A stretch of 18,903 nucleotides of DNA from Armatimonadia bacterium (GTDB taxonomy: Bacteria > Armatimonadota > Zipacnadia > Zipacnadales > UBA11051). Every line of letters starts with the position of its first letter. Position 1 is the first letter of the stretch. The position numbers and the translations under genes were made by a program. The DNA lies in contig JBDKRC010000168.1 in the NCBI GenBank assembly GCA_039683575.1, forward strand, positions 1-18,903, written 5' to 3'. The notes under the pieces were generated by a model. It did not search any database. It was not told the origin of the DNA and saw nothing but the letters and a program-made list of their open reading frames with translations. Positions 1 to 18,903 of the stretch are shown here, piece by piece.

Positions 1-67
1 CCAGATCATCCGGCAGCATGTCGAGCACATATCGCCACTCAGTTCCGATAAGCTCGGTGATTTCCAT
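1..67 (-). CDS. Partial (5' end only) probable IS4-family transposase, MEITELIGTEWRYVLDMLPDDL...
   Basis: Translated by hand from ATG at 67-65 and open to the window edge. The W-x-x-x-L-x-x-LP-x-DL pattern resembles N-termini of some IS4 transposases. It lies just inside the putative IR. Only 22 aa are visible. Confidence 0.55.
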   Translation of the reverse strand, partial: MEITELIGTEWRYVLDMLPDDL

Positions 68-102
68 GCTACAAGTGTAGCCGGAACCGGGATGGACGTA
101 AA
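68..102 (-). promoter_or_regulatory. Putative sigma70 promoter for a leaderless IS transposase transcript
   Basis: Minus strand: TTTACG (102-97), 17 nt, TACACT (79-74), 6 nt, ATG (67). No Shine-Dalgarno. The -10 lies within the palindrome GCTACA-AG-TGTAGC (68-81). Confidence 0.45.
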
Positions 103-123
103 GAGCTTAAGTTTACGCGTATG

Positions 124-344
124 CCCCTTCGGGGTCACCGACTATAGCCAGGGGTGCAACCCCTGGTACCACCGCCATACCTCTCCAGGACCCCGAAAGG
201 ATCGCCAGACACCGCCGGGGAGCGCTCCGCCAAACCCACACCGTTCCCGCCGTCTGACCCCAACGGGGTCACCGAATATAGCCAGGGGTGAAACCCCTGG
301 TACCATCGCCATACCTCTCCAGGACCCCGAAGGGGTCACCCGCC
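124..344 (+). repeat. REP-like palindromic cluster (2 units, 134-bp spacing) directly downstream of the Y1 transposase
   Basis: Hairpins CCCC-TTC-GGGG (124-134), CCAGGGGT-GCA-ACCCCTGG (148-166), degenerate GACCCC-GAA-AGGATC (189-203), TGACCCC-AAC-GGGGTCA (255-271), CCAGGGGT-GAA-ACCCCTGG (282-300) and GACCCC-GAA-GGGGTC (323-337). Same family as 15167-15643. Confidence 0.92.
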
Positions 345-345
345 T

Positions 346-798
346 TTAGTCCCACAAATAACGTTCATCATAAGCCACCCCCTGCTTCATCAAGAAACTC
401 CGGTACTCTTCCTGGAAACTGATCTCCCGGTGGTGCTCCGCCTGATTGTTGATATATCGGGCAACCTGGTTGAGCCCGTTGACGCTCACGCCGAACATGC
501 CGTAACCGGTCTGCCACGCGAAATTGCCCAGATCCGGGAACGTATCGTGAATCCAACGCGATGACCCGACCTTCAAAAGCTTCACAAGCTGCGCTGGCGG
601 CGTCTCCTTGCCCAGCCCAACTAGAAGGTGTACATGGTCATCAGGTCCGTTGATCGCGACCGGGATACAACCATTCGTGCTCGCGATACCGCCGAGATAC
701 TCATGAACCCGAGGCCGAACTCTCTCCGTGAGGTACCGCGCGCGGCTCTTGGTGCCGAAAACAAGGTGCACATGTACACTGAGGAATGACTGCGGCAT
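346..798 (-). CDS. tnpA: IS200/IS605-family Y1 (HUH) tyrosine transposase TnpA, REP-associated (RAYT-like), 150 aa
   Basis: N-terminal HLVFGTKSR, HUH motif DDHVHLL, WQTGYG, catalytic Tyr in RYINNQ, C-terminal EHH...SFQEEY...YDERYLWD. No adjacent tnpB. Palindromic repeats end a few nt past the stop codon. Confidence 0.93.
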   Translation of the reverse strand: MPQSFLSVHVHLVFGTKSRARYLTERVRPRVHEYLGGIASTNGCIPVAINGPDDHVHLLVGLGKETPPAQLVKLLKVGSSRWIHDTFPDLGNFAWQTGYGMFGVSVNGLNQVARYINNQAEHHREISFQEEYRSFLMKQGVAYDERYLWD

Positions 799-806
799 TC
801 TGCTAT

Positions 807-829
807 CCCCCCTGGCGCGATGGGTGACC
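807..829 (-). repeat. Degenerate inverted half-copy of the REP upstream of tnpA
   Basis: Minus strand GGTCACC-CATCGC-GCCAGGGG versus repeat consensus GGTCACC-GANNATA-GCCAGGGG. Its G-run lies 8 nt before the tnpA ATG. Confidence 0.5.
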
Positions 830-850
830 TTCCATGCGGTATCTACCCCC

Positions 851-1882
851 TTACAACTCCACCGCCCGCCCCGTCTCCGCCGCCTCCACCATCGCCACCA
901 GCGCCTTCGTTATCTGCAGCCCGTCCTCGCCCGTGATCAGCGGCGTCTCGTCCCGCAGGCAGCAGTTCACGAAATGCTGGAAAGCCTGGTACACAAACCC
1001 CACCGGCACTCCCATCACCTCGCCATACAACGTCCCACGGTCGCTTTCCTTGGCATTTGTGGCCATCTGGAAAGTCGGCCGCGCCGGGTCAATGTTGACA
1101 TACCCCTCAGTGCAGATCAGCTCGAACTTGCTGTCCACCATGTAGGGCATGCTCTCGGGCATGATCCAGCAACTCTCGAAGTTGCCCACGCACCCGTTCT
1201 CGAACTCCACCGTAGTCTGGTAGAAATCCGGCGTATCAATCCCCATGCTCTTGAGCTTCACCGACCGCGCCACCGCCGTGACTCGCTTGGCCTCCGACCC
1301 AAAGTACCACCGGGCGATGTCATACCGGTGGCAGATCAGCCAGAACGGAAGCTGCGTGTTGGCCGACCATGACAGCATCTTCGTCGGCACATACAGCGTG
1401 TTGTTCAGCCGCGCGTAGCAGTACAGCGGGTCGCCCAGCGCTCCCTGATCGAGGCTGTCCTTGGTCTGAGCAAACGAGTGCATCCAGCGGTTGGACCAGT
1501 TGACCATCAGCTTCTTGCCCGAAGCCTTCTGCGCCTTCAGAATCGCCTCGGCATCCTCGACAGTCGTCGCCATCGGCTTCTCAAGCAGCACGTGCTTGCC
1601 CGCCGCAAACGCCGCCTCCGCCACCTCCCGGTGCAGATGGTCCGGCAGCACCAGCGACACCGCCTCAATCTCCGGCATCGCGAAGAGCTCGTTGTAGTCG
1701 GTGAAAGCGTGCCGCGCCCCGTACTGCAGGGCAGCCGCCCGCGCCCGCTCTTCATTCAGATCGCACACCGCCAGCAGCGTAGCATCCGGCGCCACCGCCG
1801 CGCACTTGACATGGCTCTCCCCCTGCACCCCAGCGCCAACGACGCCATAGTTCAAATTTCCGGGAGCAAATGCCTCGATCAT
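851..1882 (-). CDS. Gfo/Idh/MocA family NAD(P)-dependent oxidoreductase, 343 aa
   Basis: Rossmann motif YGVVGAGVQG, H-x-L-x-EKP motif (HVLLEKPMA), strong SD AGGAGGT at 1896-1890. Confidence 0.93.
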   Translation of the reverse strand: MIEAFAPGNLNYGVVGAGVQGESHVKCAAVAPDATLLAVCDLNEERARAAALQYGARHAFTDYNELFAMPEIEAVSLVLPDHLHREVAEAAFAAGKHVLLEKPMATTVEDAEAILKAQKASGKKLMVNWSNRWMHSFAQTKDSLDQGALGDPLYCYARLNNTLYVPTKMLSWSANTQLPFWLICHRYDIARWYFGSEAKRVTAVARSVKLKSMGIDTPDFYQTTVEFENGCVGNFESCWIMPESMPYMVDSKFELICTEGYVNIDPARPTFQMATNAKESDRGTLYGEVMGVPVGFVYQAFQHFVNCCLRDETPLITGEDGLQITKALVAMVEAAETGRAVEL

Positions 1883-2027
1883 GATCCCTACCTCCTGCAG
1901 TACTCACCAATTCTCTCCCCCATACCCCCGCACCTGCCCCAGGCGCGTCGCCCGTTCCCACCTCTCCCATATAAGCAGGTCCGCGACTCCCGCATTTCGG
2001 CCAAAAACTTCTCCGCCTCGCCTCACT

Positions 2028-2062
2028 CTGACAACTGCTGACTGACAACTGACAACTGACAG
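2028..2062 (+). repeat. Heptamer tandem repeat (CTGACAA)x5, degenerate
   Basis: CTGACAA CTGCTGA CTGACAA CTGACAA CTGACAG at 2028-2062. Confidence 0.85.
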
Positions 2063-2078
2063 TGCTATAATCCGCCCC
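2042..2078 (+). promoter_or_regulatory. Sigma70 promoter with extended -10 for a probably leaderless miaB mRNA
   Basis: CTGACA (2042-2047), 18 nt, TATAAT (2066-2071) preceded by TG at 2063-2064. The ATG follows 7 nt later and there is no SD. Confidence 0.75.
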
Positions 2079-3437
2079 ATGCCTGACCGCTACTACATAG
2101 ACACCATGGGCTGCCAGATGAACGAGCGGGACTCCGAGACCATTGCCGGAGTGCTCGAAGGGCTCGGACTGGTCGCCACTCAAAGCCCCGATGACGCCCG
2201 CGTCGCCGTGCTGAATACCTGCGCCGTCCGCGAAAAGCCCGAGCACAAGGTCTTCTCTCGTCTCGGCGAACTGGCGCGCCTCAAGCAACGCCGGCCGGAG
2301 ATGGTCATCGCAGTCTGCGGCTGCATGGCCCAGGTGGGCGTGGACGAGATTCGCAAACGGGCGCCCTATGTGGACGTAATCCTCGGCCCCCGCAACCTCA
2401 AGTCACTCGGAGAAGCCGTCAAAAACGCTCTCTCTGGCCCTTGCATAACGGTATCCACCGACGTCGGCGAATGCCCTGACGAGAAGCTCCCGGCGGCGCG
2501 GACCCCGGGGCTCTCCGCCTTTGTCAACATCACCTACGGCTGTGACAACTTCTGCGCCTACTGCATCGTGCCCTATACCCGCGGCCGCGAGATCAGCCGC
2601 CCGGCAGACGAGATCCTCGCCGAAGTCCGCGGCCTCATCGCCGACGGCTACCGCGAGGTAACCCTCCTCGGCCAGAACGTGAACAGCTATCACAGCCCCA
2701 GTGAATCCGCTACCGTTGCCTGTAGGAGCGCTCACCAGAGCGCGATCGGGGACTCCATCACCTTCGCCCAACTCCTCCGCCTGGTCGGAGCTGTGGACGG
2801 CCTCTGGCGCCTGCGCTTCACCACTTCCCATCCCAAGGACCTCTCCGAAGACCTCCTGCGCGCCATTGCCGAGACCCCTGCCGCCTGCGAGCACCTCCAC
2901 CTGCCCATCCAGGCGGGCGATGACGTGGTACTGCAGCGCATGGGCCGCCGCTACACCTATGCTCACTACAAAGCGCTCGTGGACCGCGCGCGGGAGATCG
3001 TGCCGGGGATCAGCGTGACCACCGACGTCATGGCGGGCTTCCCTGGAGAGACCGAAGAGCAGTTCAACAACACCATGAGAGCCTTCGAGGAGATCCGCTT
3101 CGACCAGGCTTTCATGTTCAAGTACAGCGACCGTCCTGGAACGAGAGCGGCGAAGATGTCGGACAAAGTGCCCGAAAAGGTCAAGCAACAACGTCTGCAG
3201 CGCCTGGTTGACCTGCAAAACCACGTCGCGCGAGAGATCAACCAGGGACAACTCGGGCAGGTATTCGAGGTGCTGGTGGAGGGACGGGACGAAAAGTCAC
3301 CCGAGAAGATGCGGGGGCGGACGCGACAGAACAAGCTGATGATCTTCCCCGGCGACGAAAACCTCATCGGGAAGTTGGTCAACGTGCGCGCGGAAGAAGC
3401 CTATCTGTGGGGGTTTGTGGGGGTCTCGGAGGGTTAG
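2079..3437 (+). CDS. miaB: tRNA-2-methylthio-N6-dimethylallyladenosine synthase MiaB (radical SAM methylthiotransferase), 452 aa
   Basis: N-terminal TMGCQMN (MiaB-type), NTCAVRE, CGCMAQ, radical SAM motif CDNFCAYC, LLGQNVN, RFTTSHP, GFPGETEE, C-terminal TRAM domain. Confidence 0.96.
   Translation: MPDRYYIDTMGCQMNERDSETIAGVLEGLGLVATQSPDDARVAVLNTCAVREKPEHKVFSRLGELARLKQRRPEMVIAVCGCMAQVGVDEIRKRAPYVDVILGPRNLKSLGEAVKNALSGPCITVSTDVGECPDEKLPAARTPGLSAFVNITYGCDNFCAYCIVPYTRGREISRPADEILAEVRGLIADGYREVTLLGQNVNSYHSPSESATVACRSAHQSAIGDSITFAQLLRLVGAVDGLWRLRFTTSHPKDLSEDLLRAIAETPAACEHLHLPIQAGDDVVLQRMGRRYTYAHYKALVDRAREIVPGISVTTDVMAGFPGETEEQFNNTMRAFEEIRFDQAFMFKYSDRPGTRAAKMSDKVPEKVKQQRLQRLVDLQNHVAREINQGQLGQVFEVLVEGRDEKSPEKMRGRTRQNKLMIFPGDENLIGKLVNVRAEEAYLWGFVGVSEG
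2722..2746 (+). repeat. GTAG-type REP hairpin inside the miaB coding sequence
   Basis: GTAG-GA-GCGCTC-ACCA-GAGCGC-GAT, lying in an elongated loop after GQNVNSY. Confidence 0.65.
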
Positions 3438-3460
3438 CGAGCCAGGAAAGCCACAATCTC

Positions 3461-6328
3461 ATGAAACTCAAGATCGTTGCCTGCGGAGTATTGGAGCCTG
3501 AACTGGGCCATCTGGCCCGCGAGTCAGCTCACTCGATCACACTTGAGCTCCTCGAAGCCGGCCTCCACGACCAGCCGGACAGGTTGCGCCTCGAGGCTCA
3601 GGCCGCCATCGACCGCGCCTCAACAGAGGGCTACGACGCTGTCGTACTCGGCTACGGTCTCTGCGGGCGTGGCACCTCCGGCCTCATCGCCCGCACTATC
3701 CCCGTCGTCATCCCCCGTGCCCACGACTGCATGACGCTCTTCATGGGCTCCCGGCAGGCCTACCGCAACCAGTTCACCCGCAACCCCGGCACCTTCTACC
3801 TCACCGCGGGCTGGTACGAACACAAGGTCCGCCCGCCCGGCCACGAGCGCGAAAAGCACTACGAATCCTCGCCTGATGTCGAGCAGGACCCCCGCTTCGC
3901 CGCCCTCGCCGCCGAGCATGGCGCAGAAGAGGCCAAGTACATCATCCACTTCCAGGATAGCTGGAAGCGCAACTACAGCCGCGCCGCCTACATTGACACC
4001 GGCCTCCCCGCTCCCGAAAAGTACGAAAACTACGCCCGGCAGATGGCGCGCGACCTCGGCTGGCAGTACGAGCGCGTCTCCGGCGACCCCCACCTGCTGC
4101 GCAAGATGCTGAGCGGCGACTGGGACGAAGCGGAGTTCCTGGTCCTCCAGCCCGGCCAACGCTCGGCCACCAGCGGCGACGAGGGCCTGCTGGCAGCCGT
4201 GGACATGGAGCAGCCGCCTGCCACGCCTCCGACCAGCACAAGCGAGACTTCTACGGCCGTACGAGCGGCTTCCAGCCGCGAGGGTGGAGCGCATGGAGCC
4301 GGGCTTCCAGCCCGGCGGGTTACGCAACCCGACCACGTCGAAGAGCTTCCCGTGCCCTCATCCCTCGGCACCCTCGGCCTGGGCATCGACGCCGGCGGCA
4401 CTTACACCGACTGCGTTCTCTACGACCTCACCCACCGTTGCGTGATCTCCAAAGCCAAGGCCATCACCACCCACCACAACCTCAGCGTCGGCATCGCCGA
4501 GGGCCTCAGCAAGCTCGTACTGCCCGAGAACACTCGCGTCACCCTCGTCGCCCTCTCCACCACCCTCGCCACCAACTCCATCGTTGAGGGCAAGGGCGGC
4601 CGTCCCGGCGCCATCATCATGTCTCCCATCTCCTTCCGCCCCGGCGACCTCAAGTGGCACACGCTCCGCCACGTCTCCGGCGCGATGAGCATTCGCGGCG
4701 AGGAACTTGAGCCGCCCAACCGCGAAGAGATCGAGGCCGCGGTACGGAGCCTTCTCGCCGACGGTGTGGACGCTTTCGCCGTCTCCGGCTACGCCAGCGT
4801 CCGCAACCCCGAACACGAACTCCTCGTCCGCGACGTCATCGGGCAGCATTGCGACTTCCCCGTCGTCTGCGGCCACGAACTCTCCATGCGACTGGACTAC
4901 CTCGCCCGCGCCAACACCGCAATCCTCAACGCCCGCCTCCTAAGCGTCATCGGCAATCTGCTGCAGGCCGTCAAAACCTCCCTGGCCGAGATCGGCGTGC
5001 AGGCCCCGCTGATGGTAGTCAAAGGCGACGGCTCGCTCATCAACGAGCAGACGGCCCGCGAGCGGCCCGTCGAGACGATCCTCTCCGGCCCTGCGGCCTC
5101 GGTCTCCGGTGCCCGCCACCTCACCGACATCACCGAAGGCCTCGTCTTCGACATGGGCGGCACCACCACCGACAGCGCGATGCTCAGCCAGGGCCTCCCC
5201 CGCATTCACCCCGAGGGTGCGACCGTGGGCGGCTGGCGCACCAGCGTCGAGGCGGCCGACATCGCCACCATCGGCCTCGGCGGTGACAGTCACATCACCT
5301 TCAACGCTGACCGGGAACTGCTGGTCGGCCCGCGGCGCGTGCTACCGGTCTGCTATCTCGCCGCCGAAGCACCCCAGATCAAGGACGCGCTCCGGCGGAT
5401 GGACCCCAACCTGATCACCAACCGGGGCAACTCCCAGGTGCTCGAGTTCTTCCGCCTTGGGCGTGACCACGAAGACACCCCTCTGGATGACCGCTCGCTG
5501 CGGATCATCGAGGCGCTGCAGGACGGGCCGCTCTCGCGGGAGCAACTCGGCCGCAAAATCGGCCTGATCGAGGCCTCGCTGCTGCGGACGGAAGCGCTCG
5601 AAGACCTCGGCTTCATCCAGCGCTGCTCGCTCACCCCGACAGACCTTTTGCACGTCACCGGCGAGTTCGCGTCCTGGGACCTCGAAGCAGCCCGAATGGC
5701 CTTGAGCGTCTTCGCCGGTCTCTACGGCGTCGATCCCGACACAGTGATCGAGCGCGTACGCGACCAAATCGTGCGGCGTCTCTGTGTGCAGGTCATCCGG
5801 CACGTAGCGGGCGACGAACGGGCGCCCGGAGCCAGGGACTACCTGCTGGACGTCGGCCTCTCGGAAGCCTACACCGGCCCGCTCCAGGTTACGCTGACCT
5901 ACAATGACACCATTGTCGCCTGCGGGGCGCCGGTGCACCCCTTCTTCCCCGAAGTGGCCCGCCGCCTCAATGCCCGTCTGGTCATCCCCCGCCACGCCGA
6001 GGTTGCCAACGCCATCGGCGCCGTGGCGAGCGAAGTGGTCGCCCGCGAGACCGCGATCGTCCGTCCCGGAGAGTTGGCGGCGTACGTGGTCCATTCCCGC
6101 GCAGGCAAGCGGGAGTATGACAAGCTGGAGACAGCGCTGGAGGCAGCCAAAGCCGAGGCACAGCGCCTGGCAGTGGAACGGGCGGGGCGTTCCGGCGCCG
6201 CACAGCCGCAGGTTCGGCTGGACGTGGACGAGCGGCGGGCGCTCCTGGCCGATGGCCAGGAAGAGCTCATTGAAGTCATCGTCGCCGCCACAGCCTCCGG
6301 CCGCCCGGAGATCGGGGCAGCAACGTAG
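3461..6328 (+). CDS. DUF1638-like domain fused to a hydantoinase A/oxoprolinase-family (ASKHA-fold ATPase) domain, ~955 aa
   Basis: Likely start ATG 3461 after AGGAAAG. N-terminal IVACGVL, GLHDQP, LGYGLCG, IPRAHDC, GTFYLTAGW. After a low-complexity linker: GIDAGGTYTD, STTLATN, NPEHE, ETILSGPAAS, DMGGTTTD, GLGGDS, ANAIGA. Confidence 0.85.
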   Translation: MKLKIVACGVLEPELGHLARESAHSITLELLEAGLHDQPDRLRLEAQAAIDRASTEGYDAVVLGYGLCGRGTSGLIARTIPVVIPRAHDCMTLFMGSRQAYRNQFTRNPGTFYLTAGWYEHKVRPPGHEREKHYESSPDVEQDPRFAALAAEHGAEEAKYIIHFQDSWKRNYSRAAYIDTGLPAPEKYENYARQMARDLGWQYERVSGDPHLLRKMLSGDWDEAEFLVLQPGQRSATSGDEGLLAAVDMEQPPATPPTSTSETSTAVRAASSREGGAHGAGLPARRVTQPDHVEELPVPSSLGTLGLGIDAGGTYTDCVLYDLTHRCVISKAKAITTHHNLSVGIAEGLSKLVLPENTRVTLVALSTTLATNSIVEGKGGRPGAIIMSPISFRPGDLKWHTLRHVSGAMSIRGEELEPPNREEIEAAVRSLLADGVDAFAVSGYASVRNPEHELLVRDVIGQHCDFPVVCGHELSMRLDYLARANTAILNARLLSVIGNLLQAVKTSLAEIGVQAPLMVVKGDGSLINEQTARERPVETILSGPAASVSGARHLTDITEGLVFDMGGTTTDSAMLSQGLPRIHPEGATVGGWRTSVEAADIATIGLGGDSHITFNADRELLVGPRRVLPVCYLAAEAPQIKDALRRMDPNLITNRGNSQVLEFFRLGRDHEDTPLDDRSLRIIEALQDGPLSREQLGRKIGLIEASLLRTEALEDLGFIQRCSLTPTDLLHVTGEFASWDLEAARMALSVFAGLYGVDPDTVIERVRDQIVRRLCVQVIRHVAGDERAPGARDYLLDVGLSEAYTGPLQVTLTYNDTIVACGAPVHPFFPEVARRLNARLVIPRHAEVANAIGAVASEVVARETAIVRPGELAAYVVHSRAGKREYDKLETALEAAKAEAQRLAVERAGRSGAAQPQVRLDVDERRALLADGQEELIEVIVAATASGRPEIGAAT
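4259..4316 (+). repeat. Two REP-like hairpins in the interdomain linker of the fusion gene
   Basis: GTAC-GA-GCGGCT-TCC-AGCCGC-GA (4259-4281) and GGA-GCCGGGCT-TCC-AGCCCGGC (4295-4316). Both share a GGCTTCCAGCC core. Confidence 0.7.
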
Positions 6329-6361
6329 GCAGGGGTTCAAGCCCGCGGTCCCGCGGCCGAT

Positions 6362-6390
6362 TTGCGCGAATGCCGAGAATAGGCTATTAT
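6362..6390 (+). promoter_or_regulatory. Putative sigma70 promoter of the XRE/thioesterase/AMP-ligase operon
   Basis: TTGCGC (6362-6367), 17 nt, TATTAT (6385-6390) in an AT-rich intergenic patch. Confidence 0.5.
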
Positions 6391-6441
6391 GTTATGTTTA
6401 CGGGTCTCGATTGACATTCCCATTAGTCGTGAGGGTTGAAC

Positions 6442-7020
6442 ATGCAGTCGGAAAATCGCGTAGGATTGAGGATTCAGCAGCTCCGGGATCTTCTGAACGT
6501 CTCCGTCTCTGATCTGGCCGAGAGGACAGGTCTTGAGGAAGACGTTATCGCCCATATCGAAGGCGGATCTCTCATCCCCTCGCTGACGCCCCTGGTCAAA
6601 ATCGCCCGTGCCCTTGGCGTACGCCTGGGCACTTTCCTCGATGATGAAGAGCAGACGGCCCCGGTGATCACGCGGGCCAATGAGGCGCCTGATGTCGTGC
6701 ACTTCTCGGGCAACGGCCTCGGTTCGCTCCAGAGCACCCTGGACTTCTTCTCACTGGCGCGCAACAAGAAGGACCGCCACATGGAGCCCTTCCTGATTGA
6801 AGTGCACCCCGCTGCGACCCGCGAATTCCCGCTCTCAAGCCATGAGGGCGAGGAGTTCCTTTACGTGCTATCCGGGGAGATCGAAGTAGCGTACGGCAGG
6901 GACCTCCACCGGATCGGAGCCGGCGACAGCGCCTATTATGACTCCATCGTGCCCCATCACGTCCACGCTGCCGCCGATGAGGCAGCGAAAATCCTCGCTG
7001 TCGTCTACACACCCGTATAG
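6442..7020 (+). CDS. XRE-family HTH + cupin transcriptional regulator, ~192 aa
   Basis: HTH region LAERTGL...IEGG...PSLTPLVKIARALGV. Cupin motifs HEGEEFLYVLSG and GDSAYYDSIVPH. SD GAGGG 6 nt before ATG 6442. Confidence 0.92.
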   Translation: MQSENRVGLRIQQLRDLLNVSVSDLAERTGLEEDVIAHIEGGSLIPSLTPLVKIARALGVRLGTFLDDEEQTAPVITRANEAPDVVHFSGNGLGSLQSTLDFFSLARNKKDRHMEPFLIEVHPAATREFPLSSHEGEEFLYVLSGEIEVAYGRDLHRIGAGDSAYYDSIVPHHVHAAADEAAKILAVVYTPV

Positions 7021-7045
7021 AGACTCTGTATTGCGAGCATCAACT

Positions 7046-7462
7046 GTGTTAACCATTGCCATATCCCCCCGTTTCGGAGATGTTGACGGTTTCCGCCACA
7101 TCAACAACACTCGGCTGCCCGAGTGGTTCGAGTCCGGCCGGATGCCACTGTACCGGATCTTCCAGCCGCAAATGGATCTCGACCAGCTCAACCTGATCAT
7201 TGCCCGGATCACCGTGGACTTCCAGTCGCAGATGTTCATGCAGCCCGACGTCGAGATCCGCACCTGGATCAAACGCGTTGGCAACTCCTCCTTCACGGTC
7301 TACCAGGAAGCGTGGCAGCAGGGACGCCTGGGCGCCAGTGGCGAGACCGTGGTCGTACACTACGACTTCGCCGCCGGCCACTCGCTGCCCATACCCGGCG
7401 ATATTCGGCCGCTTCTCGAGCAGCATCTCCTACCCGAGGAACAGCAGAACCAAGATGACTAA
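7046..7462 (+). CDS. Hot-dog-fold acyl-CoA thioesterase (4HBT/FadM-like), ~138 aa
   Basis: [14 protein letters not shown] motif and [12 protein letters not shown]. The GTG start at 7046 is inferred. The stop overlaps the next start (ATGACTAA). Confidence 0.88.
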
Positions 7463-9155
7463 CGAGTACACGCCCAACTACGACGGCTTGTTCACCGATC
7501 TGACGCTCGGCGAGTTCTTCGAGCGCGAGGTCGCCGCCCACCCCGACCGCGAGTGCCTCGTCTACGCGGATCGCGACCTGCGCCTCACCTACGCGGAGTT
7601 CAACGAGCGGGTCAACCGCCTCGCCAAGGGCCTTCTGTCCATTGGCATCACCAGGGGCGACCACGTCGGCATCTGGGCCCGCAATGTTCCCGACTGGATC
7701 ACGTTCCTCTACGCCACGGCCAAGATCGGCGCCGTGCTCGTCACCGTCAACACCGCCTACAAGAGCCACGAGGTAGCCTACCTGCTCAAGCAGTCCGACA
7801 TGAAGTGCCTGGCGCTGGTGGACGGCTTCCGGGACGTCAACTACGTGGACATCATGCACGAGCTCGTGCCCGAACTCCGCCAGTGCGAGCGTGGCCGCCT
7901 GCACAGCGAAGAGTTCCCGCACCTCAAAAGCGTTATCTTCGTCGGCCAGGAAAAGCATCGCGGCATGTACAATACCAGCGAGCTGATCCTGCTGGGCAGC
8001 CACCTGCCGGATGACGAACTCAAGGCCATCGGGCCGACCCTGCACTGTGACGATGTCGTCAACATGCAGTACACCTCGGGGACCACGGGCTTCCCCAAGG
8101 GCGTAATGCTAACCCACCGCAACATCCTCAACAACGGGTACTACATCGGTGAAGGGCAGAAGCTCACCGGCGAAGACCGCGTCTGCCTGCCAGTGCCCTT
8201 CTTCCACTGCTTCGGCCTCACTCTCGGACTGATGGCAATCCTCACCCACGGCGCGACTACCATCCCGATCGAGCAGTTTGACCCCGTCCTTACCCTGGCA
8301 GCCATCCAGAAGGAACGTTGCACTGCCGTCTACGGCGTCCCGACGATGTTCATCGCTGAGATGTCGCATCCGATGTTCAGCATGTTCGACCTGACCTCAC
8401 TGCGCACGGGCATCATGGCCGGATCACCTTGTCCCATTGAGGCCATGAAGAAGGTCATGTCCGACATGCACATGACCGAGGTCACGATCTGCTACGGCCT
8501 CACCGAAGCCTCCCCGGTGTTCACCCAGACCACCACCGACGATGATGCCGAGCACAAGGCCACCACCATCGGCCGCAAACACCCTCACGTCGAGGTCAAG
8601 GTCATCAACCCCGAGACGGGTGAAGAGGTAGGCCCGAACATCCCGGGCGAGATCTGCTGCCGCGGCTACAACCTCATGAAGGGCTACTACAACATGCCCG
8701 AGGAGACGGCAAAGGTCCTTGAGAAGGACGGCTGGCTGCACAGCGGAGATCTGGTGACATACGATGAGGATGGCTACTTCAAGATCGTCGGGCGTCTCAA
8801 GGACATGATCATCCGCGGCGGCGAGAACATCTACCCCCGCGAGATTGAGGAGTTCCTCTACACCGTGCCCGGAATCAAGGATGCGCAAGTGGTGGGCGTG
8901 CCGGATCAGAAGTACGGCGAGGTAGTCGGTGCCTTCGTCACGCTTCACGATGGTGCGGACCTGACGGAGGAAGACGTCCAGGACGCCTGCCGCGCCAGAA
9001 TGGCCCGCTACAAGGCCCCCCGTTACGTCTTCTTCGTGGACGAGTTCCCCCAGACCGCCAGCGGCAAGATCCAGAAGTTCAAGCTGCGGGAGATGGCGGC
9101 CGAGCTAATAGGCGCCCAGAAGCAGGACTTCATCCAGGAATCCGACACCGCCTAG
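7455..9155 (+). CDS. AMP-binding acyl-CoA synthetase, ~566 aa
   Basis: [12 protein letters not shown]-loop, [32 protein letters not shown] and SGKIQK adenylation motifs. Start ATG 7455 overlaps the thioesterase stop. Confidence 0.95.
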
Positions 9156-9207
9156 CACCACCACCACGCACGGCATTGATAGTTGATGGCCAACAGCCAA
9201 TAGCAAG

Positions 9208-9236
9208 AGGGGCCGGATGCATAGCATCCAGCCCCT
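9208..9236. terminator. Stem-loop between convergent genes, probable terminator
   Basis: AGGGGC-C-GGATGC-ATA-GCATCC-A-GCCCCT. The single mismatch becomes a G-U pair in minus-strand (phoH) RNA. U-tracts are short. Confidence 0.55.
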
Positions 9237-9246
9237 TCGTCATTCT

Positions 9247-9271
9247 GTAGGGCCGGGGCTCGTACCCGGCC
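9247..9271 (+). repeat. GTAG-type REP hairpin, intergenic
   Basis: GTAG-GGCCGGG-GCTCGTA-CCCGGCC, a perfect 7-bp stem directly after GTAG. Confidence 0.7.
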
Positions 9272-9292
9272 GCGCCGTCGCCGCTGCCGTCA

Positions 9293-9325
9293 GACGCAAG
9301 ACGTAGGACGTAAGACGCAAAACGC
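9293..9325 (+). repeat. Heptamer tandem repeat (GACGYAR)x4.5
   Basis: GACGCAA GACGTAG GACGTAA GACGCAA AACGC, just beyond the phoH stop. Confidence 0.75.
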
Positions 9326-9329
9326 CCCC

Positions 9330-10670
9330 TCACGCCACCCCCGCCTGCCCATGCTGCATCCTCTCCGCCACAAGCTGCGCAAACTCCGACCGCTGCGAAA
9401 TGTTCAGCGGCGCCACCCCGAACATCTCGCTATCCTTAAGCTTCTCCACCGCCACCGTCGCCCCGCACGACTGCGCATCCACATACGGGTTGTCTATCTG
9501 GGTAATGTCCGCCAGCACCACGCACCTGGTCTTCTCCCCCATGCGCGATAGTGCGGTCGTGGCCTCCAGCTCGGTCGTGTTCTGCATCTCGTCGAGAATC
9601 ACCCAATACCCATGCAGCGTGCGGCCCCGCAGATACGTGTACGACTCCATCTGGAGTTGCCCGTTATCCCGCATCATCTCCAGGTCCAGGCCATTCCGCC
9701 GGTGCATTTGCAGCACGCGCAGGTTGTCAAACACCGGCATCAGCCAGGAGTGGAGCTTCTCGTCCTTATCACCCTTCAGAAAGCCGATGTCACGCCGTCC
9801 CACCGGCACGATGGGCTTGATCGCCAGAATGCTCTCATGCTCGCCGCTCTCCAGGTGCTCCAGCCCCGCTGCCAGCGCCAGCAACGTCTTCCCGCCTCCC
9901 GCCACCCCCAGGAGCGCCACACACTTCACATCGTCATCCATCAGCAGGTCCAGGGCCATGCGCTGGTAGTCATCAAGCGGCTTCACGCCCTGTATGGCCC
10001 GGTGTTTCTCAGGTAACGGCCGCAACAGGCCCTGCTTGTTGCGGCACAGAAACCGCCCCATGTTCTCGTGGCCCTCAAATTCCACATAGCAAAACTCGTT
10101 CTGCACCAGCCCCTCCGGTGCAGGCACCGTCCCGGCGTGCAACTGATCTCCGGCCGCGGCGGGCAGGATGATCGCTTCACTGTGCAGGCCCGTGTACCGG
10201 TGCTCCCAGTCCTTGATCTTGCTGCGCAGGTAGTCCTCAGCCTGCAGGCCATGGACCGAAGCCTTCAGCCTCAAGCCCAGATCTTTGGAGACCATGATCA
10301 CTTGCGGGTGCTGCTCGCTAAGCCGCTGGGCGCAGCGGATGATCATGTCGTCGCGCAGTGACTTGGGGATGTCCTCAACGGCCGGAAACTCGGGGTCTTC
10401 GGGCATGTAAATGGTGAGAGTGCCCAGACCAGGGCCAAGCGGGGCGTCTACGAGGGTGGAAGAAGCGGCACGGAGGGTCTCGAGGGAGCGGAAGACGGCG
10501 TTGGCGGCGGCGCCGCGACCGTTAGGGGCTTTGCGCAGTCCATCTACTTCATGCAGGACAACGTACGGCAGGACGACATCATGTTCGTGAAAGCTATACA
10601 GGGCGTTCGGATCGTGGATCAGAACTGACGTATCCAGCACGAACAGCTTCCGGTTCGGTTGTGGCATCAT
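9330..10670 (-). CDS. PIN-domain + PhoH-family ATPase (PhoH2/YlaK-like), ~445 aa
   Basis: PIN motifs FVLDTSVLIHDP, VLHEVD and SKDLGLRLKA. Walker A GVAGGGKT, RGRTL, Walker B ILDEMQN, QIDNPY. GGAG SD upstream; the start could be 10670 or 10667. Confidence 0.92.
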   Translation of the reverse strand: MMPQPNRKLFVLDTSVLIHDPNALYSFHEHDVVLPYVVLHEVDGLRKAPNGRGAAANAVFRSLETLRAASSTLVDAPLGPGLGTLTIYMPEDPEFPAVEDIPKSLRDDMIIRCAQRLSEQHPQVIMVSKDLGLRLKASVHGLQAEDYLRSKIKDWEHRYTGLHSEAIILPAAAGDQLHAGTVPAPEGLVQNEFCYVEFEGHENMGRFLCRNKQGLLRPLPEKHRAIQGVKPLDDYQRMALDLLMDDDVKCVALLGVAGGGKTLLALAAGLEHLESGEHESILAIKPIVPVGRRDIGFLKGDKDEKLHSWLMPVFDNLRVLQMHRRNGLDLEMMRDNGQLQMESYTYLRGRTLHGYWVILDEMQNTTELEATTALSRMGEKTRCVVLADITQIDNPYVDAQSCGATVAVEKLKDSEMFGVAPLNISQRSEFAQLVAERMQHGQAGVA

Positions 10671-10861
10671 TGGCTCCGTAGGTTCAGATGAGATTCTTCC
10701 TGCGGCTTCGGAGCGCGATGGGTGCGAGGGACACCTGCCTTTCTTCGCTGTCTCGGTCTTATGCTACCCATTCGCCAGCCGCCTCACACTCTCCTGCAAT
10801 GCCTGCACCACAGGTTACTCAACACGCAATAGTCAGCGCCATAGCCCCCTGGAGGTCCACC

Positions 10862-10894
10862 ATGGAGCCACAGCGAAACCCTCCGAACGAATAA
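10862..10894 (+). other. Candidate 10-aa upstream ORF MEPQRNPPNE with a perfect SD
   Basis: GGAGGT at 10851-10856, ATG 10862, TAA 10892-10894. Same frame as the 10922 CDS. Confidence 0.4.
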
Positions 10895-10921
10895 GTCCAT
10901 CGTCGCCGCTGGCTACCAGGC

Positions 10922-12907
10922 ATGACCTCTCCACCGGTCACAGCAGACGACCGCCCCCAGACAGTGCCGGCCGCAAAGGCCCGGTGCGTGCCCGAGGCCG
11001 TCAGCCCCCGCGCCGTCATTCTCGGCGTCGTGCTCATCCCCGTCAATGCCTGGTGGCTCGCCCAGATCGAGTATGTCCGCTACTCTGACAATGCCACCAC
11101 CTCCGCCCTCTTCTTCAACTGCCTCGCGGTCTTGCTCTTCCTGATCGGCCTCAACCACCTCATACGCCTCATCGCGCCGCGGCACGCCTTCTCGCGCGGC
11201 GAACTCCTCACCGTATACGCCATGCTCGTCATCGCCAGCGCCCTCGGCGGACATGACCAGCTTCAGATCCTCTTCACCACCATCACCTGGATCTTCCGCA
11301 ACGCCACCCCGGAGAATGGCTGGGAAAAGGACCTCATGCCTCATCTCCCGGGGCACCTGGTCATGAACGACCCTCGCGCCCTGGAAAGCCTCTACTCCGG
11401 CGACAGCACTCTCTACTCCTGGCCCCTTCTCCGCCCCTGGTTGGCCCCGCTCGGCTGGTGGGCGCTCTTCGCTCTCACGCTCGTCTGGACTCTCTACTGC
11501 CTCATGGCGATGTTCCGCAAGCAATGGGATCGCGAGCGCCTCAACTACCCCATCGCGGGCGTCCCGCTGCAGATGACCGCCCCGGACGGCGAGCTCTATC
11601 ACAGCAAGCTCTTCTGGGTCGCGTTCGCGGGCGCGATGCTAATCCAGCTCTGGCGACTGGCCCACAACCTCTGGCCCGCCGTACCCAACCTCAACATCGG
11701 TGTCTTCAACTACAGCTTCAAAGCCATGCCCCTCTCCGCCGCCGGAGCCATCCCCCTGTCCTCCTACCCCTTCAGCTACGGTATGGCCTATCTGCTCCCC
11801 GTCCAGCTTGCCTTCTCTGTCTGGTTCTTCTTCTGGCTGGCCCGGCTGGAGATGATTCTCACCGCCATGGCCGGCTTCACGCAGTTCCGCCGCTTCCCCT
11901 ACGTCCAGCAGCAGGGCGTCGGCGCCTACTTCGGCGTCGCCCTCTTCGTGCTGTGGGCCGCCCGGATGCACCTGCGGACCATCTGGCTCCTGGCTTCCGG
12001 CCAAAAGCGCAACGAGGGCGAGGACGCCGGCGAACCTCTCCCCTATCCCACCGCCTTCTGGGGCTTCTTCGCGGGAGCCTGCGGCCTCGTCGTCTTCGCC
12101 GTGGCAGCGGGCATGAGCCTCCTGACCGCCCTGCTCTACTTCGCCCTCTTCCTCACCATCTCGCTGACCCTCACCCGCCTGCGCGCCGAGCTCGGCCTGC
12201 CGACCATCGAACTCTACCAGGTCGGCGCCGATGACATCCTCCAAAACCTCGCCGGCACCCGCGCCTTCACCAGCCGCGATCTCGCGGCAATGAGCCTCTT
12301 CTTCTGGCTGCACCGCACTCACCGGCAACTGCCCATGCCCATCCACGGCGACCTCATGCGCCTCGGCGATCAGTCTCCCCTGAACCTGCGCGGCCTCTCC
12401 CGCGTGGTCCTGCTCGCCTCCGCCGTGGCCATCGTCGCCGCCTTCTGGGGCATGCTCCACGTCACCTACCAGACCGGCTACGAATCCGCCAAGTTCGTCG
12501 GCCCCGCCAAGTGGGCGTTCGGCAACGACCCCTGGCGCAAGCTCCAGCAGGCCTACAGCAGCCCCCGAAGCATCGACTACGGCGCCAGCGGAGCCTACCT
12601 CTTCGGTCTAGGCTTCACCCTCTTTCTCGCCGCCATGCGCTCCCAGTTCCTCTGGTGGCCCTTCCACCCCGTCGGCTACCTCGTCTCCGGCAGCTTCGGT
12701 CTCTTCCGCCTGTGGCTCCCGATCTTCATCACCTGGACCATCAAGAGCCTGCTCCTGCGCTACGGCGGCCTCGACGCCTACCGCAAGGCCTGGCCCTTCT
12801 TCATCGGCCTCATCCTCGGCGAGTTCAGCGGTGCTTTCCTCCGCACCGTCCTGGACCTCGTCTTCACCCTCTATCTACCCCCGTCGTCCGGCGTAGGAGG
12901 CCTCTGA
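10922..12907 (+). CDS. Polytopic inner-membrane protein, DUF6785/DUF6784-like (putative transporter), 661 aa
   Basis: Many hydrophobic helices. Family-like motifs RAVILG, ELLTVYAML, QWDRERLNYPI, RLRAELG, WWPFHPVGY, YGG...YRKA.PFFIGLILGE. Confidence 0.75.
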   Translation: MTSPPVTADDRPQTVPAAKARCVPEAVSPRAVILGVVLIPVNAWWLAQIEYVRYSDNATTSALFFNCLAVLLFLIGLNHLIRLIAPRHAFSRGELLTVYAMLVIASALGGHDQLQILFTTITWIFRNATPENGWEKDLMPHLPGHLVMNDPRALESLYSGDSTLYSWPLLRPWLAPLGWWALFALTLVWTLYCLMAMFRKQWDRERLNYPIAGVPLQMTAPDGELYHSKLFWVAFAGAMLIQLWRLAHNLWPAVPNLNIGVFNYSFKAMPLSAAGAIPLSSYPFSYGMAYLLPVQLAFSVWFFFWLARLEMILTAMAGFTQFRRFPYVQQQGVGAYFGVALFVLWAARMHLRTIWLLASGQKRNEGEDAGEPLPYPTAFWGFFAGACGLVVFAVAAGMSLLTALLYFALFLTISLTLTRLRAELGLPTIELYQVGADDILQNLAGTRAFTSRDLAAMSLFFWLHRTHRQLPMPIHGDLMRLGDQSPLNLRGLSRVVLLASAVAIVAAFWGMLHVTYQTGYESAKFVGPAKWAFGNDPWRKLQQAYSSPRSIDYGASGAYLFGLGFTLFLAAMRSQFLWWPFHPVGYLVSGSFGLFRLWLPIFITWTIKSLLLRYGGLDAYRKAWPFFIGLILGEFSGAFLRTVLDLVFTLYLPPSSGVGGL

Positions 12908-12933
12908 GCCCGCGCAGCGAACTCTCTTTCATC

Positions 12934-15144: not shown

Positions 15145-15166
15145 TCCTGTGCGAGCACCCTTCCGA

Positions 15167-15643
15167 GCCGTCTGACCCCGAAGGGGGTCACCGATTATAG
15201 CCAGGGGTGAAACCCCTGGAACGCGCACCGCCAATGCCTTCTGACCCCAACGGGGTCACCCGCCGTTGGACCCCGAAGAGGTCACCGATTATAGCCAGGG
15301 GTGAGACCCCTGGAACACGCACCGCCATCACCTTACTCCCAACGGGGTTCTCCCGCCGCTGGACCCCGAAGGGGTCACCGAGCATAGCCAGGGGTGAAAC
15401 CCCTGGAACGCGCACCGCCAATGCCTTCTGACCCCAACGGGGTTCTCCCGCCGTTGGACCCCGAAGGGGTCACCGATTATAGCCAGGGGTGAAACCCCTG
15501 GAACGCGCACCGCCAATGCTCTCTGACCCCAACGGGGTTCTCCAGTCGTTGGACCCCAAAGGGGTCACCGAGCATAGCCAGGGGTGAAACCCCTGGAACG
15601 CGCACCGCCAATGCCTTCTGACCCCAACGGGGTCACCCGCCGT
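15167..15643 (+). repeat. Tandem array of 5 REP-like units (93-95 bp period), three hairpins per unit (BIME-like)
   Basis: Central hairpin CCAGGGGT-GA(A/G)-ACCCCTGG starts at 15201, 15295, 15388, 15483 and 15578. Each is preceded by a GACCCC-GAA-GGGGTCACCGANNATAG-type segment and followed by GACCCC-AAC-GGGGT, with small variants. Linkers are conserved, not unique. Confidence 0.96.
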
Positions 15644-15690
15644 GAAAAACCGCCGCAACCCACCAAGCCCCATCAACCCGGAGTAAGCAA

Positions 15691-18543: not shown

Positions 18544-18903
18544 GCCTCACGGTCACCGACCGCCTGCAAACCACGCTCTGCGTCATCGGCGGCGGCATGT
18601 CCGGCTACTGCGCCGCGCTAACCGCCGCCCGCCACGGTTGCCCAACAGTGCTCATCCACAACCGCCCCGTCTTCGGCGGCTGTGGCAGCACCGAGATGCG
18701 CATTCCCTTCTCCGGCGCGGGCAGCCACAACCCCGCCGCCAACGAAACCGGCCTCATCCTCGAACTGCTCACCGAGGAGCGCGCGCAGTCACCCTACCGC
18801 GGCGGCGACGGCATGGTCGGGGCCCACTGGGACCTGATCCTCTACGACCGCGTCCGCCGTGAGACCAACCTCACCGCCCTCCTCAACACCCACGTCTACG
18901 AGG
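18540..18903 (+). CDS. FAD-dependent oxidoreductase (PF12831-like), partial, runs off the window
   Basis: Translated by hand: MSLTVTDRLQTTLCVIGGGMSGYCAALTAARHG...RPVFGGCGSTEMR...ETGLILEL. ATGA overlap with the upstream stop. Absent from the ORF track because it has no stop in the window. Confidence 0.9.
   Translation, partial: MSLTVTDRLQTTLCVIGGGMSGYCAALTAARHGCPTVLIHNRPVFGGCGSTEMRIPFSGAGSHNPAANETGLILELLTEERAQSPYRGGDGMVGAHWDLILYDRVRRETNLTALLNTHVYE

Follow-up and report, generated by a model that had tools for sequence, protein, structure and literature searches.

The window considered here comprises 18,903 nucleotides of DNA from an Armatimonadia bacterium (contig JBDKRC010000168.1, positions 1 to 18,903). 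Close to its left end lies tnpA (346..798, minus strand), a single-copy gene for an intact Y1/HUH transposase of 150 amino acids; two copies of a repeat module, 118..211 and 244..345 (plus strand), stand beside it, and five further copies form a head-to-tail array at 15167..15643 (plus strand; period 93-95 nt). The array is flanked by two co-directional genes, one of the BNR/sortilin type and one for a glycoside hydrolase of family 106; the extent of the array and the lack of a transposase within it are as the initial annotation described them. An Rfam scan of the whole window returned no family at gathering score.

Each module contains a copy of an 83-nt repeat, located at 124-206, 258-340, and from positions 15177, 15271, 15364, 15459, and 15554; in 7/7 copies ATAG directly precedes, on the 5' side, the perfect 8-bp stem CCAGGGGT-N3-ACCCCTGG, an arrangement that had been correctly recognized. 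The gene-proximal module (244..345) is inverted relative to tnpA, ends directly at the tnpA stop codon, and consists, in order, of GCCGTC, a small hairpin X (GACCCC-AAC-GGGGTC), ACCGAAT, ATAG (278-281), hairpin B (282-300), a spacer, a second X, and ACCCGCC. It is separated by a spacer (212..243, plus strand) from the second module, in which ATAG occupies 144-147 and hairpin B 148-166; the 134-nt-period unit formed by module and spacer recurs three times on contig C206. The second module has a degenerate 3' small hairpin and a 5' small hairpin truncated by the end of a different multi-copy element (1..117, minus strand; ORF start at 67); the three-hairpin consensus originally proposed for all copies thus holds across the repeat family but not for the copy at 118-211, from which this element has removed the 5' small hairpin.

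Modules accompany tnpA in the window only on its downstream side. Upstream, a gap (799..850, minus strand) separates tnpA from an oxidoreductase gene that ends at 851; relatives carry an upstream module at such a position, and the gap holds a faint possible remnant, the 8-nt GGTCACCC (gene orientation), which matches the 3' arm and end of the small hairpin.

The TnpA protein and its lineage

The protein matches Pfam Y1_Tnp (PF01797; E 1.7e-25) and scores 68.5 bits against NCBIfam NF033573 transpos_IS200 (cut-off 55). Its motifs are HVH at residues 55-57 (DHVH), WQ, and Y115-I-N-N-Q119-A-E-H-H with HH at 122-123, followed by a C-terminal tail of about 30 residues; none of H55 and H57 (the HuH motif), Y115, or Q119 varies in 56 sequences. 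The AlphaFold model (pLDDT 90.7) retrieves ISDra2 and IS608 TnpA as top Foldseek matches (E ~1e-9), and the protein is placed in the Y1 HUH superfamily by its HuH motif, its ferredoxin-like fold, and a catalytic tyrosine carried by a C-terminal helix. The gene was described at the outset as an intact tnpA without tnpB, and this agrees with the uninterrupted ORF and with the zero matches to TnpB domains (PF07282, PF01385) in a search of the whole 96%-complete assembly. A tblastn search of the 6.2-Mb assembly found a single identical place rather than the many identical copies of an ordinary insertion sequence, the next best matches being 47% (contig C51) and 38% (contig C331) identical; with the assembly in 352 contigs, some tnpA copies may have been collapsed.

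The tyrosine motif, YINNQ, is of the IS200 type (YxxNQ) and not the YxxxNP of E. coli-type RAYTs, as the initial annotation noted, and the IS200 lineage that it proposed finds support from a protein tree, from sequence matches to solved structures, and from the fold, all of which group tnpA with IS200/IS605 TnpA and not with E. coli RAYT. The tree, a quick search that carried long-branch warnings, puts the family and the IS200 references on one side of a branch with 97% SH-aLRT and E. coli RayT plus four class-2-like paralogues on the other, so that tnpA falls outside the class 2 RAYT clade. Among solved structures the closest sequences are IS200/IS605 TnpA, with E. coli RayT outside the 12 matches at E<=1; in the Foldseek comparison E. 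coli RayT ranks 30th, at 12% identity.

Judged by motifs alone against the printed Table 1 of Quentin et al. (2018; PMC6006769), the protein (DHVH, WQ, YINNQAEHH, 150 aa) belongs to subclass 1.2 (DH[IV]H, WQ, Y---Q--HH, ~148 aa, ~30-aa C-terminal domain). In the available text of that paper the subclass has a low copy number and low identity between copies per genome, occurs mostly in Cyanobacteria and Bacteroidetes, lacks typical IS200 terminal structures, and is listed as "REP: no". The same text describes class 3 TnpA(Y1) from Planctomycetes and Acidobacteria (Y-x4-Q, NHVH, W[TA], ~178 aa), which has CnGA-footed atypical hairpins. Class 3 resembles the present family in its phyla, its Q-type tyrosine motif, and its atypical flanking hairpins, but tnpA has Y-x3-Q, DHVH, WQ, and 150 aa, and its repeats have a TAG foot rather than CnGA.

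Repeat modules across the genome

Modules greatly outnumber the gene, at least 43 to one tnpA, which answers the genome-wide count proposed in the initial annotation. A profile built from the seven window units gave 57 matches at E<=1 in 31 contigs and 43 at E<1e-5, an undercount because many matches sit at contig ends; a genome search for the exact core of hairpin B found 30 occurrences on 19 contigs, with ATAG on one side in 29. This abundance is far beyond chance. Dispersed modules, present in at least 28 contigs, differ in their spacers and are conserved in their hairpins and borders.

The complete module is about 95 nt long and reads (GCCGT) - X - 7 nt - ATAG - 8-bp hairpin B (CC...GG) - ~23-nt variable spacer - X - CGCCGT. 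Over 25 units delimited by strict criteria, the left border (-6 to -1) reads G18 C19 C22 G16 T19 of 25, against a background frequency of 0.2% for GCCGT, and the right end is ACC-CGCCGT in 16-22/25, followed by random sequence. The right border CGCCGT thus matches what immediately precedes most copies on the left (GCCGT[T/C]), and a single CGCCGT(T) lies between the units of the array. A single-strand fold prediction indicates that the two X copies may alternatively pair with each other around hairpin B; X is palindromic, so covariation cannot separate local from long-range pairing, and one variant unit (from 15265), inspected by eye, is ambiguous on this point. The possibility that X is a pre-existing independent target was considered and rejected: of the 58 exact GACCCC-N3-GGGGTC hairpins, 46 have a hairpin B no more than 110 nt away and most of the remaining 12 stand next to a variant B; with only about three truly solo, X belongs to the module.

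The same genome harbors a second system of this kind. The C51 paralogue, 47% identical to the window tnpA, has inverted copies of its own module on both flanks; this module shares the architecture described above, has a CTAG foot and a CCAGGGCC stem, and is present in 53 exact copies on 28 contigs.

Homologous loci in other phyla

The family occurs at 589 or more loci in Planctomycetota, Verrucomicrobiota, Acidobacteriota, and other phyla. That enzyme and repeat are paired, that this pairing is conserved across phyla, and that the two co-vary emerges from a survey of 91 homologous loci, of which the 80 public ones are the best 80 of 589 by similarity and not a random sample; the ORF is intact in 78/80 of these relatives. 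Loci were scored for a TAG-footed perfect hairpin (stem >=7 bp) beside the gene in the expected orientation. Such a hairpin is found upstream (in gene orientation) in 41/91, downstream and inverted in 49/91, on both sides in 35/91, and on either side in 55/91, at median positions of -66 and +50 relative to the gene; control windows taken at these loci yielded 6 + 4 = 10 matches in 644. The two hairpins of two-sided loci have identical 7-nt stems in 28/35 cases and the same foot in 33/35.

Across the surveyed loci the feet are TTAG (33), GTAG (29), ATAG (17), and CTAG (11). The proposal of a distinct REP class with an ATAG guide accordingly stands as regards the enzyme's own cognate repeat family, while ATAG itself is one of four NTAG feet. 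The 55 positive loci contain 23 distinct stems. Mapped onto the protein tree, these take 27 changes, compared with 41.8 on average after shuffling, and the foot takes 15 compared with 28.4 (0/300 shuffles as low in each case). Stems and feet cluster on the protein tree; this falls short of proving co-evolution, because related sequences share labels. The co-varying repeats that the initial annotation suggested looking for beside homologues are present at the 55 loci, with the C51 paralogue and its own repeat family as a further case within one genome. The accessory hairpins flanking B, also claimed at the outset, are conserved family-wide: among 50 evaluable modules the 5' small hairpin is present in 44, the 3' small hairpin in 44, and both in 40, compared with shuffled-flank means of 2.0 and 4.0.

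The association is uneven. A TAG-footed perfect hairpin is absent from 36/91 loci; 67/91 have either such a hairpin or matching two-sided hairpins, and 24/91 have neither. Clear footed REPs accompany most members from Planctomycetota, Verrucomicrobiota, and Acidobacteriota and are mostly absent from those of Bacteroidota (1/5 positive); Hydrogenedentota (0/3) likewise stand out among the negative loci. In four other genomes, each with 1-3 divergent family tnpA genes, the genome's own repeat is dispersed in 13, 24, 176, and 37 copies, and a reversed-pattern control gave 0 in 4/4. The repeats of the family occur as singlets, arrays, or inverted doublets.

Role of the enzyme and alternative explanations

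The most probable explanation, to which we assign a probability of roughly 0.78, is that tnpA encodes a single-copy IS200-lineage Y1 single-strand DNA transposase in the role of a RAYT, the cognate enzyme of the ~95-nt non-autonomous modules. The tnpA group, overlooked so far, acts in the manner of the REP-associated transposases of E. coli. As in the RAYT/REP, BIME, and REPIN systems of E. coli, Pseudomonas, and Stenotrophomonas (class 2), a single-copy Y1 gene lies between inverted, dispersed hairpin repeats whose 5' tetranucleotide foot ends in TAG, different paralogues go with different repeat families, and the repeats form singlets, arrays, and inverted doublets. This corresponds to the definition of a REPtron, a single-copy gene accompanied by footed palindromic repeats that are dispersed, multi-copy, and specific to that gene, with one flank occupied in the window. 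The system differs from E. coli-type RAYTs in its Y-x3-Q motif and its position outside the class 2 clade, and from class 2 REPs in an NTAG foot with any first base and a three-hairpin module instead of one hairpin. It also differs from subclass 1.2 as presented in the available text of Quentin et al. (2018), given the 55/91 loci with TAG-footed hairpins; here the description differs and not the protein family.

In this role the tnpA product would not copy itself and would serve the non-autonomous modules, for whose mobilization and amplification it may have been domesticated; the patchy distribution of the gene, together with a protein tree that disagrees with taxonomy, argues against simple vertical domestication, and horizontal spread fits equally well. 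By analogy to IS608 and ISDra2 TnpA and to E. coli TnpA(REP), TnpA would bind hairpin B once it has folded in single-stranded DNA, using the NTAG foot as a guide or recognition tetranucleotide, and would then cut and rejoin at the module borders. More speculatively, insertion might take place 3' of GCCGT, in which case each inserted module would re-create a target at its right border, and this could explain the head-to-tail arrays.

An ordinary autonomous IS200-type insertion sequence that is single-copy by chance, its repeats being short-lived MITE derivatives with both ends and a deleted gene, is an improbable alternative. The NCBIfam score labels the protein as an IS200/IS605 transposase; IS608, ISDra2, and IS200 TnpA are the closest in sequence and fold and form the sister group on the tree, with the same HuH, Y, and Q residues; and the two direct X copies near the module ends resemble the subterminal left-end and right-end hairpins of IS200/IS605 elements. 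In an acidobacterial genome, inverted repeat doublets look exactly like the gene locus minus the gene, and tnpA is patchily distributed, being present in 13/41 related genomes. The ends of IS200/IS605 elements, as known from the IS608 and ISDra2 structures, have their hairpins and guides on one strand, whereas the footed hairpins of this family are mutually inverted in 35/91 loci. Nor is tnpA multi-copy: the members within a genome are divergent paralogues (47% and 38% identical here, with differing scores in genomes G041 and G042) and not several near-identical element copies, and the same search recovers five equal-scoring classic IS200 copies in G042, which is how a true insertion sequence looks. 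The optional tnpB partner is lacking, the protein is extended by a C-terminal tail, there are far more repeats than gene copies, and only 19 of 363 plasmid records span 80% or more of the protein, each at <60% identity.

Slightly less probable still is that tnpA is a relic, inactive after losing its upstream module, and that nothing but local tandem duplication, through replication slippage or recombination, maintains the repeats. The upstream module is indeed missing in the window, the units of the five-copy array share the "variable" spacer, as local duplication predicts, and the last 35-46 nt of the C51 tnpA have been duplicated six more times along with the module, all locally; however, the ORF is uninterrupted and keeps every invariant residue, and the dispersed copies on at least 28 contigs have different spacers.

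No empty site was found near the five-unit array in three same-genus genomes, whose DNA is 66-77% identical and whose flanking genes lie on different contigs. Parts of the window occur in 18 public runs, all as contigs, the best of which holds 0.31 of the sampled words. One such contig links 15122 to 15552 through 215 other letters where the window has 429, and one from another run has 208 letters, against 44 in the window, ahead of the first array unit; short-read contigs collapse tandem repeats, and array length may differ in relatives that are 90-99% alike.

The idea that the repeats serve the host as structural or regulatory elements (terminators, mRNA stabilizers), spread by other means and merely targeted by tnpA is just as improbable as the relic: the array does lie between two co-directional genes, and another element does use the small hairpin as an insertion target, but targeting would not yield the same stem and foot inverted on both sides at fixed distances, separate repeat families for each paralogue in one genome, or stems clustering on the protein tree across phyla.

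Returning to TnpA as the enzyme of its modules, a broader reading can be offered tentatively, as possible rather than probable when all its parts are taken jointly: subclass 1.2 with its X - NTAG-hairpin - spacer - X modules may be a separate REP system on the IS200 side of the Y1 tree, either a surviving IS200-RAYT intermediate or a second, independent conversion of an IS200 enzyme to one that tends repeats, in which the X copies would be old IS200-like ends, B would provide recognition or the guide, and GCCGT re-creation would build in head-to-tail arrays. It bears on the question raised in the available texts of Bertels et al. (2017) and Corneloup et al. (2021), namely whether RAYTs arose from IS200-like ancestors once or more than once. 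The available text of Bertels et al. (2017; PMC5581495) reports that duplicates and plasmid-borne members are absent and that flanking 16-mers are abundant; its Group 3 is comparable with the tnpA family by description only, as the text is without sequences. The repeat structure of subclass 1.2 is described neither there nor in the available text of Quentin et al. (2018; PMC6006769). REPs for this subclass were likewise not found in the literature on the subclass, on RAYTs of Planctomycetota, Verrucomicrobiota, and Acidobacteriota, and on TnpA(REP)-IS200 domestication (2019 on), and per-species REPtron tables (Quentin et al., 2018; Di Nocera et al., 2013) may hold cases. The conserved architecture of the three-hairpin module has no description in the literature examined.

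An enzyme that is IS200-type by sequence and fold shows the full RAYT lifestyle here, at 589 or more loci in several phyla. To our knowledge, REPs and RAYTs have been studied almost exclusively in Proteobacteria, with class-2 enzymes. The small, well-folding protein and the natural variation in the first base of the foot (A, C, G, or T) could be used for testing how guide tetranucleotides choose cleavage sites. In practical terms, such repeats break assemblies and at present carry no annotation other than "IS200/IS605 family transposase".

The element at 1-117 is outside the TnpA/REP system but uses the module as its target. A Pfam search with its 22-aa ORF fragment gave no match, and only the first 107-117 nt of this multi-copy element are assembled, at three contig ends. 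In the window it is inserted inside the small hairpin (GACCCC-NNN-GGGG|), and such precise insertions into the small hairpin occur at 4 places in the genome.

A single tnpA gene and its multi-copy module

The window is the whole of contig C168, from an assembly of 6.23 Mb in 352 contigs (63.5% G+C). The tnpA gene, at 346..798 on the minus strand, is an intact ORF of 150 residues whose product matches the Pfam Y1_Tnp domain (E 1.7e-25), scores 68.5 bits against the NCBIfam IS200/IS605 transposase model (cut-off 55), and carries the motifs HVH at residues 55-57 and YINNQAEHH starting at Y115. The gene is single-copy; the nearest others in the genome are 47% and 38% identical (tblastn). The TnpB domain was found nowhere in the assembly, which is 96% complete, confirming the initial annotation of an intact tnpA without tnpB. 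The genes neighbouring tnpA are ordinary metabolic genes.

The 83-nt repeat occurs seven times in the window, twice at 124-340 and five times between 15177 and 15636; in all seven copies ATAG lies immediately 5' of CCAGGGGT-N3-ACCCCTGG (hairpin B), so the original description of seven ATAG-footed copies was accurate. An Rfam search of the window gave no match. Genome-wide, the exact hairpin core occurs 30 times on 19 contigs, with ATAG on one side in 29 of the 30, and searching with a profile of the seven units gave 57 copies at E<=1 (31 contigs), 43 of them at E<1e-5. The relation of enzyme gene to structured repeat is one-to-many, with at least 43 modules (E<1e-5) to one tnpA; the true repeat number is higher than counted because many copies sit at contig ends.

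Alignment of the 43 copies, together with analysis of 25 strictly defined full units, delimits a bounded module of ~95 nt. The module consists of GCCGT[T/C]; X, which is a small hairpin (GACCCC-N3-GGGGTC), and ACC after it; GAnT; the ATAG foot; hairpin B, with an 8-bp stem and a 3-nt loop; a spacer of ~23 nt that varies among dispersed copies; X again, as a direct copy, with ACC; and CGCCGT, beyond which the sequence is random. At the left border (positions -6 to -1) G, C, C, G, and T are found in 18, 19, 22, 16, and 19 of the 25 units, against a background frequency for GCCGT of 0.2% per position, and in the five-unit array a single CGCCGT(T) separates adjacent units. X is a component of the module, since the 58 exact X hairpins include 46 with a hairpin B no more than 110 nt away, and most others adjoin a variant B. 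The gene-proximal module is inverted relative to tnpA, and its end coincides exactly with the tnpA stop codon.

Folded as single strands, the units do better than shuffled sequences (z from -2.7 to -4.4). The minimum-energy structure does not consist of three local hairpins but pairs the two X copies with one another around B; thus, both folds are possible. Contigs from 90-99%-alike relatives (public sequencing runs X2 and X4) span the same two genes, but the intergenic stretch (window 15122-15552) differs in length: the X2 contig has 215 letters where the window has 429, and the X4 contig has 208 instead of 44. The cause may be an array of variable size or a collapse in assembly.

Lineage of the enzyme

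The solved proteins closest to the tnpA product by sequence are Deinococcus/ISDra2 transposases (E 8.7e-11 to 7.7e-8), with IS608 TnpA at 1.3e-4; E. coli RayT is absent from the 12 matches to solved proteins at E<=1. An AlphaFold model (56-sequence alignment; mean pLDDT 90.7) has the IS200-type fold with the catalytic residues present. Foldseek ranks ISDra2, IS608, and IS200 transposases at the top (E 1.9e-9 to 2.1e-7; 22-31% identity) and places E. coli RayT (4er8) at rank 30 (E 2.4e-4; 12% identity). A tree of 102 rows comprised 91 homologues of tnpA (the family), five annotated plasmid IS200/IS605 TnpA proteins, E. coli RayT, and five paralogues from the same genome. The family and the paralogue on contig C331 form one group (SH-aLRT 99) adjoining the IS200 references, and a branch with SH-aLRT 97 parts these from RayT and the class-2-like paralogues, although the topology among outgroups is unsure because the search was quick, lacked bootstraps, and gave long-branch warnings. 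Sequence matches, structural ranks, and the Y1/RAYT phylogeny thus bear out the IS200 lineage proposed at the outset, placing the family beside IS200/IS605 and away from RayT. Just 19 of 363 matching plasmid records span at least 80% of the protein; typical plasmid IS200/IS605 genes align to residues 8-120 only, and therefore do not have the C-terminal tail.

Repeats of paralogues and homologues

The genome has seven Y1-domain genes in total. The 47%-identical paralogue on contig C51 (locus L021, 5570-9010) has inverted copies of a module on both its upstream and its downstream side. The architecture is that of the tnpA module, but the letters differ: the small hairpins read GGCCC-GAA-GGGCC and GCCCC-GAA-GGGGC, the foot reads CTAG, and hairpin B reads CCAGGGCC-GCAA-GGCCCTGG. 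This module is present in 53 exact copies on 28 contigs. Six additional copies of the final 35-46 nt of the C51 ORF accompany the module, every one of them on C51, so local tandem duplication also adds to copy number. Many C51-type copies adjoin short tandem runs of GCCGTT-like units. Among the remaining genes, C331:37301-37651 belongs to the same subclass as tnpA, and four distant ones (C237:52338-52667, C102:9064-9342, C31:890-1150, and C338:4861-5124) have class-2-like (NP-type) motifs; three of these four, on C237, C31, and C338, are each flanked by distinct inverted repeats or hairpin arrays of their own. The C338 gene appears to lack the catalytic tyrosine motif.

Homologues (E<=1e-10) were found in 13 of 41 genomes (40 relatives and the genome itself), the best being 53% identical; in genomes of the same genus the best were only 44% and 41% identical. 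A scan of one genome per species gave at least 598 candidate stretches, at least 589 of them confirmed. The best 80 of the 589, at most 55% identical to the window protein and with an intact reading frame in 78, come from Verrucomicrobiota, Planctomycetota, Acidobacteriota, Hydrogenedentota, Bacteroidota, Thermodesulfobacteriota, and other phyla. Family members at loci L038, L070, L062, L079, and L068, whose metagenome bins bear the labels Bifidobacterium, Bifidobacteriaceae, Enterobacteriaceae, Klebsiella pneumoniae, and Nanoarchaeota, group tightly with Verrucomicrobiota, Acidobacteriota, or Planctomycetota sequences, and the labels of these bins look unreliable.

The survey covered 91 loci: these 80 public loci and the 11 full-length ones of 22 places in the 41 genomes, the 11 weaker or partial places being excluded. 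Within 300 nt of the gene, a perfect hairpin (7 bp or longer) with TAG immediately 5' of it lies upstream in gene orientation at 41 loci and downstream, inverted, at 49 (both sides, 35; at least one side, 55); 644 control windows, drawn from the same loci no closer than 1.2 kb, contained 6 and 4 such hairpins. Positions are stereotyped (median -66 upstream, +50 downstream), and the gene-repeat geometry is conserved. The feet are TTAG (33), GTAG (29), ATAG (17), and CTAG (11). Comparison of the two sides in the 35 loci that have both shows the same first seven stem bases in 28 and the same foot in 33. Including matching two-sided hairpins with other feet (e.g. CAG or TTG) raises the positive loci to 67 of 91; Bacteroidota (1/5 positive) and Hydrogenedentota (0/3) are mostly negative.

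The 55 footed loci have 23 different stems, which the protein tree accommodates with 27 changes (shuffled mean, 41.8); the foot requires 15 (shuffled mean, 28.4), with 0/300 shuffles as low in either case. This is clustering and no proof of co-evolution, because kin share labels. Flanking repeats in homologues, a check suggested by the initial annotation, are widespread, and every paralogue or homologue is specific to its own repeat. The accessory hairpins that it described also recur: among 50 modules with sufficient flank, from 41 loci, a small hairpin lies 3-13 nt before the foot in 44 (shuffled flanks, mean 2.0) and 12-40 nt past B in 44 (mean 4.0), with both in 40 and at least one complete three-part module in 34 of the 41 loci. 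This three-part layout is a general feature of the family.

Four other genomes, each with one to three divergent family genes, contain 13, 24, 176, and 37 copies of their own foot-plus-hairpin; a reversed-pattern control gave 0 in all four. The 176 copies of TAG-CCCGGCCT-N4-AGGCCGGG are in an acidobacterial genome (G043, with locus L085), mostly as inverted doublets ~127 nt apart (e.g. L122 and L123), each pair forming a ~190-nt palindrome. These doublets are REPIN-like, their layout being identical to that of the tnpA locus minus its gene. A genome from the window's own order has head-to-tail arrays of period ~70 in which adjacent units have one small hairpin in common. Of the four, G042 (with locus L105) carries two divergent family genes and also a classic IS200-type gene in five copies with equal scores; therefore, a single genome contains both an ordinary multi-copy IS and the single-copy REP-associated type.

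Relation to known systems and proposed mechanism

The finding is real and supports the interpretation given in the initial annotation: the REP/RAYT lifestyle is carried here by an enzyme of class 1 and IS200 lineage, whose three-hairpin module is conserved. The principle is not new; what is new is such an enzyme, with such a module, in this role, and the finding extends to a large, little-studied family. The enzyme would bind hairpin B and the TAG foot on single-stranded DNA and then cut and join at the module borders. Insertion 3' of GCCGT would regenerate the target, because the right border repeats the GCCGT found before most copies, and could so give rise to head-to-tail arrays.

The protein signature matches subclass 1.2 as tabulated in Quentin et al. 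(2018; PMC6006769): DH[IV]H, WQ, and YIKNQKEHH (Y---Q--HH), a median of 148 aa with a C-terminal domain of 30 aa, and a copy number of 1.7 per genome, the copies being 36% identical; the subclass is found mostly in Cyanobacteria and Bacteroidetes. The entry there, 'REP: no', is contradicted by the repeat association of members from other phyla, whereas the Bacteroidota agree with it, which may explain the discrepancy. The family is probably the same group as one named 'RAYT-like IS200 Group 3' by Bertels et al. (2017; PMC5581495), which is reported to be unduplicated, absent from plasmids, and accompanied by abundant flanking 16-mers; its repeats are not described there. GTAG repeats and REPtrons are recorded for Planctomycetes and Verrucomicrobia (Di Nocera et al., 2013; PMC3733652), and the literature search found no later description of subclass 1.2 REPs. 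The invariant TAG and free first base agree with the argument, as put in Corneloup et al. (2021; PMC8266576), that GTAG corresponds to the guide of IS608 and that its last two positions select the cleavage site.

Two further repeated elements occur in the window. Direct-repeat families at 12511-15144 (D3-D6 and D13) are BNR/Asp-box repeats (SxDxGxTW) within a sortilin/Vps10-type protein, which rules them out as mobile DNA. Some insertion sequences in Pseudomonas and E. coli target REPs. The multi-copy element at 1-117 (minus strand), also present at the ends of contigs C10 and C109 and partly C206, looks like an insertion sequence targeting these small hairpins. Only its first 107-117 nt are present in the assembly, its body being absent; its ORF starts at window position 67 and continues past the contig end, and in four places the element meets the repeat at the identical point inside the small hairpin (GACCCC-NNN-GGGG|).
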